From assembly GCF_036321535.1 (NCBI RefSeq), contig NC_087436.1, positions 28,584,001 to 28,648,000 on the forward strand: a DNA stretch of 64,000 nt, in the 5' to 3' direction. Position numbers and translations under genes: made by a program. The stretch's first letter is position 1, and each line of letters opens with the position of its first letter. Origin of the DNA: Camelus dromedarius. Its lineage: Eukaryota. This document shows, in pieces, positions 1,401 through 59,437 of the stretch. Below the pieces are notes generated by a model. The model ran no database searches. It saw only the letters and a list, made by a program, of their open reading frames with translations, and was not told where the DNA came from.

Positions 1401-3769
1401 GGTTAGAGGCTGTACCAAATCTATCTTTCCTAAATTAAAAGTATGGTCTTTATATTCTTTTCATTACTCTCTCAAAACATTTCAAATACTATAACATTTT
1501 ACTTTCCTTTTCTTCAATGTTTGCAACTCCTCAAGGGTTATTTCAGTATCAACTTGGACTTCAATTTTAAACCTGTATTTTCTTGCGTGTGCTGTTTATA
1601 TTACTTAAGCATATTATCCAGTGAGTCTATTTGTGCTGATCATTTTAAATTAATTTTTTTCTAGTATTCTTTCAGCGTGTAGCTTTAGTTAGCAAGAATT
1701 TCCTCAACTTGCTGCTCTCATAATATTTTTTTTTTGCTTCTGTCTTGACCCCTTTGAAATAACGTAGTCATGTTTGCTGCTTTCAAATCCTCTAGAATCT
1801 CTCCCAAGTCTAGTGAACTTTAAAAAATGTCAGTTAAAGGTTCACTGGTTTTCTTGTTCACTTCCTTTAAAATTCATGGATAGCCGCCATCGAGATGGCT
1901 GCTCTGTCTACTTGAAGCACAGCGCCCTTAGCAGTTCTACTTTTTATCTATACCTTTCTCACTCTTTATCTTACAATTTTATGAAATCTATTCTTGGCTG
2001 AAAAATATCTTATTTCTTGCTTTATTTCTGAACACAGATTTAAATAAATATTTTCGCTTGCCATGACTGAAATGATGATATAACTCTGTTATTGGAGAAA
2101 ATAATTTTTAATATACTGAAATTAAAATAACAGCAAATATATGTAGTTTAAAACTAAGGATTATGTAAGTATTTTCTAGAAGTTTTTAAAATAATTTATG
2201 AAAGCTTATTCCCTTATTCCTAAGAAATTATGTGCAAAGCATTACTGCATACCTAATGATAAGTTTTTCCTGAGATAAAGGAGTGAAGGAATTGGTGGAC
2301 ATATATACACATGCACACTCCTCTAAAAATGAGACTCTGTTTACAAATCAGATGTGTATTATCTAAGCACTATACATTTAGTCATATTAGCTATGACTAA
2401 ACAAAAATCCATAGGTGAATATAGAGAATGGTGTTGATATTTTAATAAAGAAGATATATGTGTACATACAGCCAAAATAAGAGAAGAGTAATTCTGTAAA
2501 TGAAGCTTTAACACGTACTATCATGAATATCAGTTTATAGTTTTAATAAATAGTTTTACACAGTTCAACATTAGGTACGTATTAAGAAAGTTACCATCTA
2601 GGTCTCAATAAATCATTTATTTGGAATTTCAGAAATTTAGTATAAGCAGTCCGAACACTTTATTTCCACAGATGATTAGAAGTGTTCCTTTTTCATGATA
2701 TTTTATAGTAGTATATTCATGGAATAATATAGTCAAATCATATTATGAAATATCTCCCCAATTTTAAAAATCTTTAATCATATAATATAGGTCACATAGA
2801 CAGGCCTGAATTTTATTGAAATGTTGTTAGTGGTAAATCAAATGAACATCTGTTTTTCAGTTTCCTATGAAAATTCAGGTTTCAAACTCTTGTATATTTT
2901 GGTGGAAACTGTTCTATTATCTCTGTGTTTGTTAGTTCTATACAATTATCTAAAAAAAAGAGCTAGTTTTTGTATTGTTACCTGAAAAGAAGTTACCGTC
3001 AGAAAATGTCTATTGAGTACTGACAGATTAGAATTCCCCATTTTATAAAACATAATGTGACTCATGTTGTCAAGAAAAAATGTTTAATTCAGATGGCAGA
3101 AAGTTGCTTCATACTATATGTATTGCAATAAATTAATGTACATGAAACCATGTTTACAAGACATGATAAAGAATTCAACCTTTTTAAAAAATGGAAGCCC
3201 ACCTCTAATGATCTTTTTTTTTTTTAATATTAAAAGAATGAGATTCCAATATTTTTTTTCACCTCCTGGGAAGATTTTCCAATTAAAATTAAACTTTTCT
3301 TGTTTTTGAGGAAAGTTTCACTAAAATTTGTCATGGGTAATGATTTAATTTCTGAACTGAATAAGCATTAAGGAAATGGCGGGGGGAAACCCCACTGGAT
3401 TGGGTTGGTAAAGTGATAGAAGAAAGGATGAGCTTTTGTAGGGAACTAAAGGAGGAAAAGATGGTGTTCCCAGTGATAAATTAGGTCAACAAGTAGATCA
3501 TAAAGGTTTCGAGGTATTGAAGGGCTGGAAATCTAGTGATTATTCTGGAGGGAAAGCCTACCCAGGGGAAGGAAAAGGAATCAAGGCTCTTGACAGTAGT
3601 GACAGTAGTAACTCACGGAAATGCACTTGGAGTCATTACCTACAGTGCCCACTCTGCCAAAAAATGGGCGACACCAATGGCTGTGTCCTGGGACTGGGAA
3701 AAGTGTCAGCTATTCCCTGCTCGACATCTACCTGCTCAGCATTCTACAGCACCTCCAGCAGGATTGAAA

Positions 3770-5237
3770 TGAGATAAATGTTGTTCTCATGCTTTCTAAC
3801 ACAACATCCAGTCTGCAGCCCGTGGATCAAGGAGTTAATTTAACTTTCGAGTCTTATTATTTAAGAAATATAGTTCATAAAACTGTATCTGTCATTTATA
3901 TTGATTCCTCTGATGGATCTTGGCAACGTCAATTGAAAACCGCTGGAAAGAATTCACTATCCTAGTTACCATTAAAAGCATTAATGATTCATGGGCACAG
4001 GTCAAAATACCAACATTAACAGGAGTTTGGAAGTAGTTGATTCCAATCCTCATGGATGACTTTGAGGGGTCCAAGACTTCAGTGGAGAAAGTAACTGCAG
4101 ATGAGGTTGAATTAGCAAGATAACTAGAATTAGAAGTGGAGTCTGAATATGAGACTGAATTGCTGAAATCTCATGATCAAACTTTAATGATAAGTTGATT
4201 CTTAAGATGAGCAAAGAAAGTCATTTCTTGAGTTGGAATCTACTCCTGCTAAAGAAGCTGTGGAGATTGTTGAAATGACAATGAAGGATTTAGAATATTA
4301 CATAAACTTATTTGACAAAGCAGTAGCAGGGTTTGAGAGATTGACTCTGATTTTGAAAGAGGTTCTACTGTGGGTAAAATGCTATCAAACAGCATTGCAT
4401 ACAACAGAGAAATTGTTCATGAAAGGAAGAGTCAATTGACGCGCAAACTTTGTGTTATCTTATTTTAAGAAATTTCTACAGCTACCCCGTCCTTCAGTAA
4501 CCACCACTCTGACCCATCATCAGCCATCAATATAGGGGCAAGACCCTCCACCAGGAAAAACAGATTCACTGAAGGCTCATATAATAGTATTTTTTAGCAA
4601 TAAGGTATTTTTAAATTAAGTTATTGTCGACAGCCTTAAGTGAGTAGGCCATGGGGCCCAGGCCAAAGTTCAATAGCTTGCACCTGGTAACAGGTAAATG
4701 TACGCATGCGCCAGTAGCGTGACCACCACGCATGCGCCAGTAGTGTAGCCAATACGCATGTGCCAATAGTATGAGTACTGCATTATGAACAATACGCGTG
4801 AACAGGCAGAATATACAAAAAAGACAATTGCGCCATGCCGGCGGCGTGCCGTCTTGTTGAACTAGAGGAAAGTGCTGAGCGCCGCCGCCGCCGCCGCCAC
4901 CGCTGCCCACCATGCGCGCCGCCCGTTTGTACTGTAATAAAGTGCTGTTTTGCTCCATGTCTGCTCCTCGCGCATAATGTCGGCTCCTCGTGCCTTGTTC
5001 CAGTTGCGGCATCTCACCTCCTCGAATCCCTCTCCAGCCTCCCTCGGCTGACAGGTATGTACATTTTGTAGACAAAAGAGTGTGCTATTTAATACTTAAT
5101 AGACTACAGTGCAGTATAAACATAACTTTTATATGCACCGGGAAACAAAAAAAAATGCATGTGACTCTCTTTATTCAGATAATCACTCTGTTGTGGTGGT
5201 CTGGCACCGAGCCTACAGTATCTCTGAGCTGTGCCTG
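3770..5237 (+). mobile_element. Tigger1 DNA transposon, 3' portion (decayed transposase C-terminus and right TIR), interrupted by a solo LTR at 4625-5053
   Basis: Matches recalled Tigger1 sequence ('aacacaacatcc...gcagcccgtggatcaagg', 'ctcatggatgactttgaggggt'). ORF 4233-4439 ([35 protein letters not shown]) is the transposase C-terminus. Ends 'gtgcctg' followed by TA (5238-5239). Confidence 0.93.
4625..5053 (+). mobile_element. Young CpG-rich solo LTR (429 bp) of an endogenous retrovirus
   Basis: TG...CA termini with an imperfect terminal inverted repeat (TGTCGACAGCC / GGCTGACA); 5-bp TSD GTTAT (4620-4624) / GGTAT (5054-5058); cleanly splits the Tigger1 sequence TTAAGGTATGTAC; TATA-like element about 4810-4820; AATAAA 4936-4941; about 30 CpGs. 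Confidence 0.85.
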
Positions 5238-6446
5238 TACTGTGTGCCCACAACACAGATAATTATCTTGAAGTAATATTAATCCTAAAGTCTTCCAGTT
5301 CAGTTTTAGAATTTCTCATTGTTTATCTTGAGAGGTCACAGCATTAATAGTCTTAAATATAAGTTGTCTATTTCTTTACAAGTACCAAAAGAAAAGTGTG
5401 GGGTGAAGTCTAGCAGAGGTGCACGTAGACAATATGTCAGTAGCAATGATACATTCATACCACAGAAGTTTGTAGGGACCCAAAGGGACCCACCCAGAGT
5501 CAGGCTTTGTCAAGGGTCCCAGTGGTGGTGGTTTCAACCCCCAAACTTGAAAGCATCATTTGTTTATCTCTTATTTTGATGCTAAGTTTTGCCAGGATCA
5601 CTATCACCTGTACATCATTTTCTAAAAAGCCCCCAAAGTGCAATTTTCTTTTATCTCCCCATTTAACTGTAAACTTGGCATGGGGCCTCTGGTAATTCCT
5701 GGGGACAGAGGAACATGGGCTTAAGCTCTGGTCTAGTTTATTTCTGAATATTAGAGTTCTGGACTAAGACTGGCCGAGCCATCCACCCTTTTGCCTCACT
5801 TCCCTGCCCAGCCCCACAGGGAGGAGTGGAGGGAACAGAGCCCTTGTCAATCACAGGGCTACCCAGCAGGATTTAGCTACAGTCTCTCTGGGTTGGGGCG
5901 AGTAAAGTGGAGAGCTGGGCGGAGCAGCCTGCAGGAGTGGGTAACCATTTCCTGGTCAGTCTCCAAGGGGCTGTGCGGGGCAGGCTGGGGCTGCTGCTGC
6001 TGCTGCTTGTCATTTCTTGGCGGCACCTGCTCTCTGGGCTCTCTGAGGAAGGAGTTTGTACTAAGTGCACCACACTTGGCCACTGTCCCTTCTTAGCTTT
6101 AGCAAGATACCTTTGGAGAAGATCTAACTAAATCTCTAAGATGTCTTTGGTGCCACAGGACTAATCAGTCCTAAATAGCTCTGTACTCTTTTTTTCCCCC
6201 CTCTAAAATTTCAACAACCTGCTGCACTGCTAGGTTTTTATCAGCCCTAGAGACCTGCTTACAGTTATTTAGCTCCCAAAAATCTCTCAACCACCTCTGG
6301 TCCTTTTGAAGCCCACATACAATGGCTAGGGAACTCCTTCCCTAGCATTTTTCAAACCTGACTGTTGGGTCTGTAATCTAACCTACTATGTGATCTTAGC
6401 CAAGAGTCAGGGGCCAAAGAGAAGGATCAAAGATCCTCATTGGAAG

Positions 6447-16880: not shown

Positions 16881-16903
16881 CTTTTTCAGTGCCTATTTTT
16901 TTT

Positions 16904-17198
16904 TAACATTTTTTACTGATTTACAATCATTTTACAGTGTTGTATCAAATTCCAGTGTAAAGCACAATTTTTCAGTTATACATGAGCATACATATATTCA
17001 TTGTCACATTTTTTTCTCCATAGGCTACCATAAGATCTTGTATATATTTCCCTGCGCTATACAGTATAATCTTGTTTATCTATTCTACAATTTTGAAATC
17101 CCAGACTATCCCTTCCCACCTTCCGCCCCCTTGGCAACCACAAGTTTGTATTCTATGTCTATGAGTCTATTTCTGTTTTGTATTTATGCTTTGTTTGT

Positions 17199-17232
<34 letters not shown>

Positions 17233-17937
17233 TTCCACATATGAGCGATCTCATATGGTATTTTTCTTTCTCTTTCTGGCTTACTTCACTTAGAATGACA
17301 TTCTCCAGGAGCATCCATGTTGCTGCAAATGGCATTATGTTGTCAGTTTTTATGGCTGAGTAGTATTCCATTGTATAAATATACCACCTCTTCTTTATCC
17401 AGTCATCTGTTGATGGGCATTTAGGCTGTCTCCATGACTTGGCTATTGTAAATAGTGCTACTATGAACATTGGGGTGCAGGTGTCATCCTGAACTGGTCA
17501 CCAGTCTTATTCAACATAGTCTTGGAAGTCCTAGCCACAGCAATCAGGCAAGAGAGAGATATAAAAGGGATCCAAATTGGAAAAGAAGAGGTAAAAGTGT
17601 CACTATATACTGACGACGTGTTACTATATATAGAACCCCTAAAAGATCCACACAAAAACTACTAGAGCTCATCAAAGAATTCAGCAAGGTAGCAGGTTAC
17701 AAGATTAACATTCAAAAATCAGTTGCATTTCTTTACACTAACGATGAATCAACAGAAAAAGAAAGTAAAGAAACAATCCCCTTTAAAATAGCACCCAAAG
17801 TAATAAAATACCTAGAAATAAATCTAACCCAGGAGGTGAAAGAATTATACACAGAAAACTATAAACCATTGATGAAGGAAATTAAAGAAGACTTTAAAAA
17901 ATGGAAAGATATCCTATGCTCTTTGATTGGAAGAATG
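16904..17937 (-). mobile_element. Young L1 insertion with 5' inversion and internal deletion
   Basis: Minus part, about 16904-17495: 3'UTR and ORF2 C-terminus ([27 protein letters not shown]). Plus part, about 17498-17937: RT ([15 protein letters not shown]...YTDD...WKDI). TSD AGTGCCTATTTTTTTT at 16888-16903 and 17938-17953, with a TT/AAAA site. Confidence 0.93.
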
Positions 17938-20900
17938 AGTGCCTATTTTTTTTAATCTCAGTAAATGTGCATTTATGTGACCTTGTTCCTTAGGAAGCTG
18001 TAGATTGCTCCAATAATTGTCCATATCAATTTTTATTACAATTGTGTGTTTATTGTTTTTTTTTCCTGCTGAATAGTATATAAATATTTTGAGAATATGT
18101 ATTATATCTTTATCATCATTCCAATACTAGAAATTAAGTCATTGTTCAAAAGAAGTAAATGATTTTGGAACTGAGTTATAAATAAGTGATAATTATATTA
18201 AAAGTGATTTTTTGTTATAGGCCTACTAAGCTTAATTGGGCTTAGATATCTGTTAGTTTATTTAAATTTTTATACAAATAGGTACTCTTTAGTCAAGATA
18301 AAATAAGTTATATTACATAATCAAATAATCTCCAACTTGCAATCTCTTCAACTACTTAAGATTATTTTTTATTCAGGATGACAGACTAAAACATCTGAGG
18401 TATCACTGGTAAATAAAACTTTTGCCCAGAATTGACACAATTGACAACTACTCATATTTCTTTGGCCAAAGAAGTTACATAACCATACTTAATTATAAAA
18501 GGAGCAAGGACATGCCAACCTACCATGTGCTCTATATATAAACTTGCCCCTAGGTTTTGCTGTTAAATGTGAACATTGGGGCATTTTTTTCCCAAACATT
18601 TTCAAACATTTCTTATTGCTGACATTCTTATTTTAAATTTTATTTTTACAATTTTCCCTGCTTATCGTATAATAGTAGGGATTATTATAAATCTTAAATT
18701 GCCTTTTGAGTACATACCATTTTTTAAGTTAACCTGATGAAATAACAGCTGTCTTCAAGAATTTGATTAAAAGTAATTTCAAAATAATTAAGATGTTGAG
18801 GTGATATGTTATTATAGAAAATAACATTGGAGACATTGCAAAAGAAGTCAGTAATGGAAATGAAGCATTGCACCTAGTAAAGGAGAGCCCTTGGGCACAT
18901 TACTTAACCTTTCAGGGTGTCATAGCATGATGTTCACAATAAGACACTTGGATTAAATGATTATCTATGGTATGTCAGTCCTAAAATTCTGATTTATGAG
19001 AACTGGTAACGAAGACTTATTATATACTTATGACTCACTTCTACCTGAGCTGGTTATAAATTGTCAGACATTGAATTCTTAGTATTCTCAAGCTGCTGCC
19101 TAATTTTTAACTTTTTTTGTCAAAAAAAAAATAAGTACAATAGTGATTTTCATGGTCAGCAGTTGCCGGGAAACATGAAATCTACTTTTAAGTCTTCACA
19201 CATTATGTTTAAAAAATATTTACTGATTAGGGGACTGAGCATTGGATAGTTATTTTAGAAATATAATTCAACAAATATCTCTTAAATAATTCCCACTAAT
19301 TTAGGTAGTTTTAAGTCTTTGTTTCTAAGAATTAATTATACTAGTGTGAGTTAGATATTCATGAGATGGGTACATATATAAGTCATTTCAATATTTTTCT
19401 TATCAAATATATGAATAATAAGTTAAGGAAACAGATTAATTTGAGCATCAAGAGTGACAGGAAGTGATTTTTTAAAAAGGTGTATTTTATTTTCTCAAGT
19501 GATATGAAAAGTTTAGCGAAGTTACATTATCATTTATGAAAAAGTTTAAAAAGCACATATTAAAATTTAATTTTAGGATATTCCTCACAATTTTCACGTT
19601 GATTCATAGTTTATAAGCCTATGTATTTGGGAATTCTATATTTTTCATAGATAATTTTCCCTTCATATTTTTTACATTAAAAAGTTTGTTTTTCTTCTAG
19701 AAATTTAAATACTTTCATAAAAAATTTTTTTAAATAAATAATGTTTTACAAAGAAAAGCATAATAGATAAAATGATTTTTTATTCTTATGTAACTCCAAT
19801 CATTCTTTTAGGAACCTGAAATCAAGAGACCTTTAGTTTGACTTGTGAACTACTTAGTTTTATTGCTCTTGCATTGGGCATAATTGGAAGGAATTATAAA
19901 TTCTGTGTGATAAACTTAAAATTTCATACAATCCAAGAGAGGTCTAGAGATTTAGCACAATTTCTGCATGGATATTACATTTTTGTTGTCTATCTCTCCC
20001 TGGAATATGCAATACTTTCTGTATTTAATCAACATAATCTATGTTAACAAGAAGAATTTTGGTCATTGTTTTATTCCAGGAGTAATTTAACAACAATAAA
20101 AAAGTCAAATTTCTAACATTTATAAATAAATTAAGAATTTTTATGTTGATTTAGTTGTATCTTACAGAAATTAAACTTGACTCATGGGAAATATAAAATA
20201 AATTACTCCATTATTGCTGCCACTCTCCTTTTGGTCCAAGGTACACTCCTTCTATAATATATGCCCCCAGATCTAGATATCTGTTTCCTATTTGCCTTTC
20301 AGCATAGCTGAGGGAAGGTTGGAGTTCTCGAACAAAACTGTAACAGAATTTAAAAAATAAATAAATAAAGAGTACCAAAGTGGAAACAAAGAAAGTAACA
20401 TGTATTTTTTTGGTCTACAAACTGTTCTGGTTTTGCTTTCATTAGATGACTGTGAAAGCAGTAATTCCCATTGTTATATTGTTGGCCCAATAATCTAAGA
20501 CCTCTCAATAAGCCCTAGATCTGGTTTCTTCGGTCCAGTTACCCATATGAGGGTAAATCTTTTTTCTCAGTGATTGACAGACAACTAGGCTACCTCCAGC
20601 TCTAGGCGAAATCTAATCCATCTGTATGCCAGACAGGCCTAAGTATGAGAGCATATTAAACTACTACCCAGTAAGGCCAGCAATGAAACCATATGCACTT
20701 GCAAAAATAAAAAATTATCATAGAGGTTACTCCATCATAGTACCAAAGGTACTTCATGATTTAGTTCAACATTTGTGGCTGAATTAAAGTGTTTATTTCC
20801 TTTATTTTATATTTCCCATGAGTTATCTATAGCTTTTACCCACAAAAATCAACATAATGTGGTTTTCAAAAGATAGCTTAATGAGTCTCTTGTAGATAAA

Positions 20901-26104: not shown

Positions 26105-26508
26105 CACAAATATAATTTTATATTGTTTATTTTAAAAATAAATTTTCAGATAATTCCAGTGAAAAAAGCAGTTGAAACTGACAAATGGAAATTTCTAGAG
26201 CAAAGAGTGGTTACAGTGTTTTGCTCCCCAAAGTGAAATTGAATAACTACTCCCCTTGCACTTGCGTCCTTAGGCTGCTTCTTCATTCCTGTTTCTCCAG
26301 TAATGGTTGGCCAATGCATTACTACCCACTGTGGCAATGCCACTAATGATGTTGCTGCAATTGCTGCTGCAATGGCATCAAAAGACTTCTTCAGGCTATT
26401 AGGCCAGATGTAAAAGCGAGACAAGTTCAATCTGGACCCCTGAAGAGCCACTCTCCAAAGTCTTGTCAGCTGTAATCTCTCTGAAAGCTCCTGGTCATCA
26501 GGTCTAGC
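26105..26508 (-). other. Candidate terminal exon of an unidentified minus-strand gene (120-codon open frame, or mostly UTR)
   Basis: Acceptor ttttctgtttgctgtag|GCTAGA at 26509/26508; GC-richer unique sequence; phase-0 frame open to TGA at 26146-26148 (ARPDDQELSERLQLTRLWRVALQGSRL...FFTGII*); AATAAA (minus) at 26126-26131. Confidence 0.5.
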
Positions 26509-29896: not shown

Positions 29897-30032
29897 AAAA
29901 ATATTGTTTAGGATACATTCATATATATATGAATTCATATATATACGCAGTAATTTAATAAACAAAAATATTGTTTAGGATACATTCATATATATATGAA
30001 TTCATATATATATACGCAGTAATTTAATAAAC
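29897..30032. repeat. Near-perfect tandem duplication (67 + 69 bp) containing an AT palindrome
   Basis: aaaaatattgtttaggatacattcatatatatatgaattcatatatatacgcagtaatttaataaac occurs twice; the copies differ by one AT unit. Confidence 0.95.
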
Positions 30033-30277
30033 AAATTAAAACACAAAATTCTGGATGATGAGGATCTGGGAGGGGCACAATGTGTACTTCAAAGTTTTGA
30101 TAGAAGAATTATTTCCCTAAAGCTTTGCTGTGAGTGCTCAAATCTTCATATTAGCATTATTATTTATGCTTTTCACATAGCTGATAAATGTTTCTCTATG
30201 TGTATTAAAAATTTATTTACACTTCAATTTAAATCAAAGGAATGATAATCTCACAATTCAGGATAATATTTACTTGA

Positions 30278-34435: not shown

Positions 34436-35586
34436 AGCTGATTCAGTGCATTGTTTTTATCTAGAGTGGTGAACATCCCTTTTCTGTAACATGAACTTCC
34501 TTGTATGATTGCTAAGTAGAAAAGCAGGAAAATGCGGTAGTCATATTGTTTCATTCACAATCTTTCCTAAGCAAGAAAAGTTTTAAAAGGTGGGGTTAAA
34601 TTTTCCAACAGGAAAAGGCAAGGGTGCTTTGTGAAGCCATAACTCTTGGGCTGTACTTCACAAAAAATTAAAAATGGCTCTGGAGTTTCTTCCACAGAGA
34701 GTTCTACTCTCAACCTTGAGCATCTCTTGGCTGCCCAAAGGATGGCACAGCCCACTGTGCTGACCTGAGTGGCAGTTCCACTGACACAGGACTCCACTTT
34801 TGCTCCATCGTCACAGCCTCTGAGTAACCTTAGCTGTAAGTAAATTGCTGTCAGGACATCTAAATTGTTGCTATTATGCCTATTAATATCACAGGGGCAA
34901 CCTCTATCCAGGCTGAGCTGCCTAAGTGGTCCAAATTATCTCCCCCAAGGACCAATTACTGTTTAACTTACAGCTTTGGTACAGACTTGCATGTATTCTG
35001 AGTTGTCTTCCCTCCAACTTGTTTTCTCATAAATAGGATGATCTGGAGTCCAGAATGGCCCCTGAGAGTCCTGGCTTAATTTTGTCTGTGGCATACTTAT
35101 GAATAGCATCTTCTTTCATTCTCAAAGGTGCCCTAGTTGACAAATTATATGGTTGCCATATTCATAGCCATGTATTTTTAACATAATTTTACAGAATGTA
35201 ACATTTTCAGGAATACATATATTAATTTATAGCAGGAAAGCTCATAACTAAGGAAGTGTACTTGCCTGGATGTACATGTGTAGGATGGTAATTCTCCACC
35301 TGAAAAATGGATGTTTCATTTGTTTATTGTTAGATTGGTTTGCAAAATTAAGGACTAGAAAGGAGAATAGAATTTTCCTTACTCTAATACCAAGTGATGT
35401 TAGACAATGACACAAAAAGAACCACTTTTACAATTCATTATTCAAGTGTGTTATGCGGAAACTATCAAAATTTTGATAATGTGAATTAAAAACTGTAACA
35501 ATTATTTCTCTATCTAATAAATGCTTAATATACAACTCCTCATGTACGAGGCATGAGGTACAATTACCAATTGTGTAATCTCATTT

Positions 35587-56060: not shown

Positions 56061-57865
56061 GAGGGGATTTCAGACGGTGTTTGATATTCACTGTCCAACT
56101 CAGGTAACTTTTTCTAGCTGCATGAAATATGATTTCATCTTTTATCTCTACTATACTGGCCTCACAGAAACAATAGTTCCCTTGAAGAAATGAGTGACTT
56201 AGGTATTGCTGACTCTAGCCGCATGGAGTTGGATGGAAGATAGAGCTGTGGGAATTCAAGTGAAAAAGTGCAATTAAAAAAAAAGAGAGTAACGATACTT
56301 CAAATGTTTCTTCCCTAACTTCATGCTCGCATATATAAAAGGATATGTTTCATATATTCTCAAATGAATGACTCCACCCAGTGAACTACAAAGATAGATT
56401 TGTTTTTCAAAATTTGTTTTGATATAACCTGAATTTTGAAAAACGTGACCTTTTTAGTAATGTGAACACTTTGTATAGTTCAAAAATAAAACCATAAGAA
56501 GTACAGATGTGTTTAATCTGGTTCAGACTAACCAATTAGTAATGTCTTCAAAATACTATGGGGTTGAACATAATCAAAATTTATAGATAATATATGTATA
56601 TTTGTATATCTGTGTATATATAATTTTTAAACATGCCACTCTGTTTTTTACATTAATGGCACCAGTAAAATCACTAAGATGGGCAAATTCTGTTTTCTTC
56701 TGTGTAAAACCACTGCAGATACATCTGATATCAGGTCATCTGGTAAAGCAGATGTGGCAGGATGATGTTATCTGAGTCTGTGCATCACCTTCTTCGCCGG
56801 CATTATTAACCTTTTATACCATCCGCTTACACCAATACATATCCCATCTTCCACCCTGCATCCCCTGTAGATACCTCTGTCAACTACGTGCTTCCAAGTC
56901 TATTCTGTATGGTTAAAGTCTTATTCATGTGCCATTAAGTATACAACAGTGTATTTTATGTAAGATGGTCCTAGATGCTGAAAACATCTTCAATATTTTT
57001 TAAAATGTGAAGTAAATGGACTCGTATAACAGATTTTTAATAAGGAATTTTTAATTTATTATCCAAATACTTAACTTTTGGCAAAATTAATTAAGATAAA
57101 TGACATATTCTGCAATAATTATAATTGAAAGTGTACATTAATATTCATGTATATGTGCTGTGGGAATAATGTTTTGTTTAAAAGGAAATGTTTTAAACAG
57201 TTTATAATAAATATGCCCTTTTTTGTTATCTTTAAAACACGTTGTCTCCTCAGAAATATAAGAAACATTATAAAATCATTATGATCACTGCAAGGAAATT
57301 CCCACTTCTTAGTTAAGCTTGAGCTCCCATCTGTCCCTTTCCAGCCTCGCAGAGAGTGTTGATGGAGTGAAGGACTGCACTCCTCACTCATTTTCACATT
57401 TCACATTTTCATATTATCCCCCTGCCATTTGAAACACTCTATCTTGGGCTCTCAGGACCTCCTCTTCTCTTCATGTTTTCAAAGGCATATTTACAGGGTT
57501 TTTTTTTTTTTTCTTTACTACTGAACATATGGGAAAGGTTTTAGTTTGATTTTTTTCTACACACTCAATATTAACTTTTGAAACTTGGGTTTTTGCATTT
57601 TTTTTCTTCATGAATAGCATAGTTGGTTTGTTTGGATTAGTGATAATTTAAAAAGAAAACAAAGCTAACCCATGACATCTGAAGATTACTTTTCAGGAAA
57701 TATTTGAGTTAGAAAGTCAAAAAAATACAAGTTCTGATATTTCTGATTTCATTTACCCATTCATTCATTTATTGTCAAAAATTTACTGAGTATATTATGA
57801 TTTCTAGGAGTCAATAATTATACTAGAAACTCAAGGTATAGTGTCTCCACCCTAAAGTAGTTTAA

Positions 57866-58925: not shown

Positions 58926-59437
58926 TGTGATGGTTAATTTTATGGATCAGCTTGGCTGGGCCATGGGGTGCCCAGCTATTTGGATGACATTATCTCTGAG
59001 TGTGTTTGTGAAGGTGTTTCCAGACAAGATTAACATTTGAATTGAAGGCCTGAATAGAACAAAGGCTGAGTAAGGGAGAATTCTCTCTCTTTGTCTGATG
59101 TCTTTGAGCTGGAACATTGTTGGTCTTCTCCTGCCTTTGGATTTGGCCTTAGACTGGAACTTACATCATCAGTCCTCCTGGTCCTCAGACCTTTGGACTC
59201 CATCTTGGATTTTCAACCTCCATAATCATATGAGCTAATTCCTTATAGTAAATCTTTCCTTTCTTTTCTTTTCTTTTTTCTTTTCTTTTCTTTTGTTTTC
59301 TTTTCTTTTCTTTTCTTCTTTCTTTTTCTTTTCTGTTCTCTTTTCTTTTCTTTTCTTTTCTTTTGTCTTTCTCCCCACCTCTCTCTGTATGTCTCCTGTG
59401 AGTTCTGTTTCTTGAAAGAACCCAGACTAATAATACA
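58926..59437 (+). mobile_element. MLT2-family (ERVL) solo LTR with internal (TTTTC)n expansion
   Basis: TGTGATGGTTAATTTTATG...GACTAATAATACA; 5-bp TSD AGTCT/AGGCT. Confidence 0.92.
59254..59370. repeat. (TTTTC)n pentanucleotide microsatellite
   Basis: About 115 bp of TTTTC repeats inside MLT2. Confidence 0.95.

Follow-up and report, generated by a model that had tools for sequence, protein, structure and literature searches.

A CpG-rich solo LTR, tentatively ERV-S-like, within a Tigger-type transposon of the dromedary

A window of 64 kb from the genome of Camelus dromedarius (NC_087436.1, positions 28,584,001 to 28,648,000; the window is the whole stretch of DNA that was analyzed, and all coordinates refer to it) contains one element that is rich in CpG dinucleotides within otherwise CpG-poor DNA. 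This raises the questions of which class of endogenous retroviruses (ERV) the element was derived from and why its CpGs were retained. Solo LTRs of young age are frequent in mammals, and there is nothing unusual about a single CpG-rich copy in gene-poor DNA. What gives the finding its value is the class assignment.

The element was located at positions 4625..5053 of the forward strand, has a length of 429 bp, and starts with TGT and ends with ACA. These coordinates, the length and the TG...CA termini are the same as those given in the initial annotation, where about 30 CpGs in a CpG-poor window had been reported as well. By direct count, the element has a G + C content of 0.557 and contains 32 CpGs, corresponding to an observed/expected ratio (O/E) of 0.97, and the remaining 63,571 bases of the window contain 285 CpGs at an O/E of 0.167. 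Other 429-bp stretches of the window hold 1.9 CpGs on average and 7 at most, and the Poisson probability at the background rate is about 1e-14. The CpGs are unevenly distributed, with one in the first 77 bp and 31 in the remaining 352 bp. The excess ends sharply at the borders of the LTR, the adjacent parts of the host transposon having an O/E of 0.18 and 0.31, respectively.

The LTR is genuine DNA and no assembly artefact, because its sequence words are present in public runs. From 37 sampled words, a fraction of 0.89-0.95 was found in 20 of the 23 runs listed (16 samples, 10 studies) and none in the other three, in a run-level word search that cannot separate a single fixed locus from many near-identical copies. 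One substitution would cost 2.9 of the 37 words, i.e., 0.92 would be left. This value was obtained in 14 of the 20 positive runs listed, and the assembled LTR may therefore deviate from the common form in a single change or a single repeat-length variant.

The LTR is situated inside a Tigger-type transposon, as had been recognized before. A decayed Tigger/pogo-type transposase remnant with stop codons and frameshifts extends upstream over 3740..4619 (+, with an approximate 5′ limit), and its frame at 3768-3962 matches the Pfam family DDE_1 above the cut-off (E-value 8.8e-06). Downstream, the sequence at 5059..5240 (+) reads as the 3′ end of a Tigger-type element with a terminal-repeat-like end and TA. 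The host element is presumably Tigger1, whose flanks we take to rejoin exactly, judging from the Tigger1 3′ end. A matching 5′ terminal repeat could not be found in the window at up to three mismatches. A candidate for a second Tigger-like copy and a model of the empty site (57021-57058) was rejected with a score at chance level (69 vs. a shuffle maximum of 73), and an Atlas search with the C-terminal piece of Tigger resulted in no usable match.

Several other features of the window were recorded. At 16890-17950, an L1 3′ end on the reverse strand is joined at ~17495 to a piece of L1 ORF2 on the forward strand, which has a weak RVT_1 match. This is the pattern of a 5′-inverted L1, and its 3′ end (~16900-17500) is assumed to resemble camelid L1. 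Perfect short tandem duplications are present in AT-rich sequence at 29897-30035 (49 nt at a spacing of 67 and 30 nt at a spacing of 69), and a long pyrimidine microsatellite of the (CTTTT)n type is located at 59246-59379. Furthermore, two stop-free frames of 120-122 codons on the reverse strand (26149-26508 and 34567-34935) resemble exons and have a G + C content above that of the adjacent DNA. The former was discarded as a host-gene exon, having no Pfam family and one weak, repeat-driven PDB match, and no homologue was found for it among longer proteins (0 of 396 candidates).

Immediately next to the LTR, GTTAT (4620..4624, +) and GGTAT (5054..5058, +) form the target-site duplication (TSD) of 5 bp with one mismatch that had been annotated. 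According to our own arithmetic, a flank match of 4/5 or better has a chance probability of about 1.6%. In total, 20 combinations of length and offset were tried, and a one-mismatch reading resulted for three of them: the 5-bp reading, a reading of 6 bp, for which the terminal A of CA has to be counted as flank, and one of 4 bp, which requires one extra base. Neither flank of the LTR contains a primer site or a purine tract, no internal retroviral genes adjoin it, and no second copy of the LTR is located within the 64-kb window. A TSD on both sides together with the lack of primer site, purine tract and second copy is the product expected of a recombination between two LTRs. With the TG...CA ends in addition, we infer with strong confidence that 4625-5053 is a solo LTR by origin, as the initial annotation had stated for an endogenous retrovirus.

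The searches outside the window revealed no relatives among the data covered. A scan of IMG/VR with a 16-mer of the LTR hit 44 loci, which are regarded as chance matches because none of them extended past the seed (best 38 bits), and metagenome scans with 26-mers of the LTR resulted in 0 matches. In the window itself, no Rfam match was obtained. A scan for bacterial promoters is uninformative for the present host.

Read from its motifs, the LTR appears to respect the order U3-R-U5, with tandem repeats followed by the TATA-like and AATAAA signals that the initial annotation had pointed out. By repeat search, three tandem repeats of 26 bp with an enhancer-like appearance were detected in the putative U3 (4702..4779, +). 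The palindrome CGCATGCG, which is predicted and here assumed to be NRF1-like, is intact in copies 1 and 2, and the repeats include CCAAT boxes at 4749 and 4763, which we take to be putative NF-Y sites. An A-rich, TATA-like run at 4810..4822 (+, TATA at 4812) is the probable core promoter with a presumptive start site. It is followed by a GC-rich stretch with 12% A (4830..4935, +), which by its base composition is the probable R region and contains a (GCC)6 run at 4881-4898. Class III, gamma and lentiviral LTRs have been reported to be depleted of A in this region. The polyadenylation signal AATAAA (4936..4941, +) lies 118 nt from the 3′ end, and the R/U5 segment (4950..5053, +) consists of three repeats of ~21 nt and a terminal hairpin of 5 pairs (5035-5050). 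The LTR retains the components of a Pol II promoter together with a poly(A) signal, any function of which at this site would be putative. In the probable R region, an ATG in a strong Kozak-like context opens a frame of 21 codons (4912-4977, +), which runs across the poly(A) signal and is probably incidental. On the reverse strand, a stop-free antisense frame of 157 codons (4614-5084) spans the whole LTR. It was rejected as a gene, having no Pfam family, and is taken as a by-product of the high G + C content.

For the class assignment, TSD length and LTR ends were compared with published values. Table 1 of PMC4299795 gives a TSD of 4 bp for ERV1, 6 bp for ERV2 and 5 bp for ERV3 and ERV4, and the accessible text of the same source notes that the length is not uniform inside the ERV classes. 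In the part of PMC3601003 that was available (Table 3), TGT/ACA is the integrase motif of class III. The ends of the element match this motif, and with 8/9 and 7/7 positions the gamma motif of that source fits too, so that the ends alone do not decide the class.

A comparison with LTR18, the LTR of HERV-S, was more informative. HERV-S/LTR18 is placed in the ERVS lineage of ERV3, which is without dUTPase and has a class I envelope, in the available portions of PMC5753468 and PMC4724089. The comparison was carried out by eye, with blocks picked after seeing them, on the LTR18 sequences printed in two sources that were available in part, PMC3601003 (supplementary file 2) and PMC9712623 (LTR18A library). 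The element and LTR18A have a block of 9-10 nt (4642..4651, +) in common, which lies near the 5′ end of both at comparable positions, and a 7-nt block (4781..4787, +), weak when taken alone, also occurs in the U3 of LTR18A. After the AATAAA signal, five blocks of 6-7 nt (4955, 4985, 4998, 5041 and 5048; 32 nt in total) are common to both LTRs in the same order, and the late U5 block is also kept in LTR18B, whose last six bases are identical to those of the element. The middle parts of the element and of LTR18A do not match. In the library, whose rows are barcode repeats and no independent copies, the 10-mer of the 5′ block is contained in at least 600 LTR18A rows vs. 0 for the reversed string among the rows listed, and the 7-mer at 4955 in at least 2,783 LTR18A rows vs. 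at least 272 for its reverse (accessible part of PMC9712623).

A stand-in null distribution was generated by shuffling the element itself. A total of 32 nt in ordered blocks was reached by 47 of 3000 dinucleotide shuffles, and 27 of 5000 shuffles yielded a 9-mer within the first 45 nt. The joint chance is about 1e-4, or about 0.04 after allowing for some 500 families. By hand count, the distance from the poly(A) signal to the 3′ end, 118 nt in the element, amounts to 106 and 115 nt in LTR18A and LTR18B, to ~60-75 nt in six MaLR/ERV-L LTRs, and is also long in LTR53 (~118 nt). From the ordered blocks common with LTR18A/B, the element was tentatively assigned to ERV-S-like class III. Given the shuffle result and the independent TSD length, membership in ERV3 (class III) is likely as far as sequence comparison goes, and the narrower, ERV-S-like placement is put forward with moderate confidence. 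The earlier statement that no known family could be assigned is revised by this tentative placement, the resemblance to LTR18 as a whole being confined to short blocks.

Other retroviral sources of the LTR have to be weighed against ERV3. The initial annotation had taken the ends as betaretrovirus-like, and a class II (ERV2) solo LTR with a true TSD of 6 bp, from which one A was lost at the 3′ junction, could be imagined. Its 6-bp reading equally has one mismatch, and the element ends in a hairpin of 5 pairs; some non-HML LTRs of ERV2 have a similar 5′ start and a short closing hairpin. However, an extra deletion would be required, and the blocks in common with LTR18 would need to be chance. 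Furthermore, the termini miss the HML motifs of Table 3 in PMC3601003, the normal TSD of ERV2 is 6 bp, and of the ERV classes, class II has been reported as the least abundant in camelids in the accessible literature. The betaretrovirus-like hint is not supported, and a class II origin is considered improbable. Some weight, though a small one, is given to a class I (gamma/epsilon-like) LTR with a 5-bp TSD or to another, ERV-L or unplaced ERV3, member of class III, for which several observations speak: the gamma terminal motifs fit almost fully, TSD length varies inside classes, ERV1 and ERVL are abundant among the full-length elements of camelids, and small, well-supported ERV1 and ERVL clusters exist in alpaca. 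Yet the MaLR and ERV-L LTRs that were compared have a short distance from signal to end and different ends, and in the accessible parts of published LTR training sets, in which gaps hide matches, LTR18A is the only class III LTR with the late U5 7-mer close to its 3′ end. The TSD of 5 bp had also led to the mention of lentiviruses, whose TSD has this length, and the element comes close to the ~420-bp LTR of the colugo lentivirus. That the solo LTR stems from an endogenous lentivirus so far unknown is nevertheless hardly credible: lentiviruses are poor in CpG, the opposite of this CpG-rich element, no stable TAR-like fold was obtained (R/U5 z-score 0.85, with 163 of 200 shuffles folding as well), and the LTR18-like blocks together with the TSD fit ERV3. 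In addition, according to the available text of PMC4198772, rabbit, ferret, mouse lemur and colugo were the only hosts of lentiviral Pol among the 104 genomes screened.

The second question, why the CpGs were retained, is best answered by youth of the insertion. By hand count, the LTR18A consensus contains ~25 CpGs in 357 bp, which is the same density as 32 in 429 bp, and in the human LTR18A copies shown many CpGs are lost. This equal density implies that youth explains the island-like look, and with an excess that stops at the LTR borders, the recent insertion proposed in the initial annotation is upheld. Some decay has taken place: TG or TA is present at three of the nine CpG positions within the U3 repeats, the O/E of TpG in the LTR is 1.57, and the TSD mismatch, if read as one change since insertion, counts against absolute youth. 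Alternatively, the LTR could be old and have escaped germ-line methylation by means of NRF1-, NF-Y- or YY1-type sites, as an orphan CpG-island promoter, which concerns its age and not its class. Consistent with this, the CGCATGCG cores, the CCAAT boxes and the GCC run are all located in the CpG-rich part, the LTR lies within the common definition of a CpG island (>200 bp, >50% GC, O/E >0.6), CpGs are scarce in the first 77 bp and the TSD is mismatched. The abrupt stop of the excess at the borders, a density equal to the ancestral level of LTR18A and the lack of an identified gene in the window argue against it, so that this alternative is rated as rather unlikely and an escape from methylation, though conceivable, is not required for explaining the CpG richness. 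With an assumed decay of 2 to 4.4e-8 per CpG per year and a retention of 0.67-0.9, the age of the LTR is roughly 2-20 My, or up to 40 My at the slowest assumed rate. Young LTRs are to be expected, since peaks of LTR elements are given at 0.3-2.1 My for wild camel and 1-4 My for alpaca in the accessible part of PMC8605555.

Taken together, a class III retrovirus of the ERV-S kind, a relative of HERV-S/HERV18 with its LTR18, would have inserted, in the germ line, into a Tigger-type transposon that was already dead, where its integrase would have left the duplication of 5 bp. A recombination of the two LTRs may then have deleted the internal genes and left one LTR. ERV-S LTRs would have been CpG-rich at insertion, and this copy, at ~2-20 My, would be too young for the loss of most CpGs. 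As a whole, this account of an ERV-S-kind insertion, LTR-LTR recombination and youth appears reasonably probable. In the accessible text of PMC8278194, the ERV-S elements of mammals are characterized as degenerate in general, and camelid ERVs are counted by superfamily only in the available parts of PMC8605555 and PMC6675863. With a young ERV-S family in camelids, a poorly sampled retroviral lineage would gain a dated and well-preserved member, and presence/absence markers for camelid phylogeny as well as a natural series for timing CpG decay would become available. It is further conceivable, though doubtful, that an undescribed ERV-S retrovirus invaded camelids within the last few million years, is perhaps still insertionally polymorphic, and spread CpG-rich promoter modules containing NRF1-like repeats across the genome. 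If true, this would rank with the youngest ERV-S invasions known from a mammal. The lineage is one of class III that has a class I envelope and is without a known living counterpart, and its insertion pattern, silencing and dating could then be studied in a livestock species.

Among the known systems, the LTRs of MaLR and ERV-L (MLT1, MLT2, MT2, ORR1, LTR16) are like the element in the 5-bp class of their TSD, the TG...CA ends and the AATAAA signal, but differ in the ~60-75 nt from signal to end and in their terminal bases; the mammal-wide members of these groups are old and CpG-depleted in genomes. HERV-S has a primer site for tRNA-Ser. No description of a camelid ERV-S family was found in the literature covered, mainly papers of the open-access kind, and motifs of the LTR gave full-text matches only to two 11-mers, none of them on retroviral LTRs by title. 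The alpaca LTR families LTR1_Vpa and LTR2_Vpa are already catalogued in Repbase, as seen in the available parts of the PMC4724089 supplement and of PMC6726744. The element could belong to a named alpaca family such as these, which are known here by name alone, and the chance that its family already has a Repbase name is about even. HERVL32, HERVL66, the horse elements ERV3-5 and ERV3-1N-EC and the marmoset element ERV3-1-CJ, env-bearing and dUTPase-less ERV3 in the accessible text of PMC4724089, are likened to it by class alone. The frog XtERV-S, of class III and with a reported 5-bp TSD, is likened by description only (available part of PMC8278194). As far as these two sources were accessible, env-bearing ERV3 lineages occur outside primates, and XtERV-S shows that such lineages can be young (PMC4724089, PMC8278194). 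The closest likeness is that to LTR18A/LTR18B of HERV-S (HERV18/HERVL18; PMC5753468 and PMC4724089, in the parts available). LTR18A is annotated in simian primates, has a length of 357 bp as opposed to 429 bp and is old, whereas the element kept its CpGs; the element also has the 26-bp U3 repeats and the GCC run, both absent from LTR18A, and unlike LTR18A it has no AP-1 match. In common with LTR18A/B are the TGT...ACA ends with the last six bases, the 5′ block, the ordered blocks, the long distance from poly(A) signal to end (106-118 nt) and the CpG density of the consensus.
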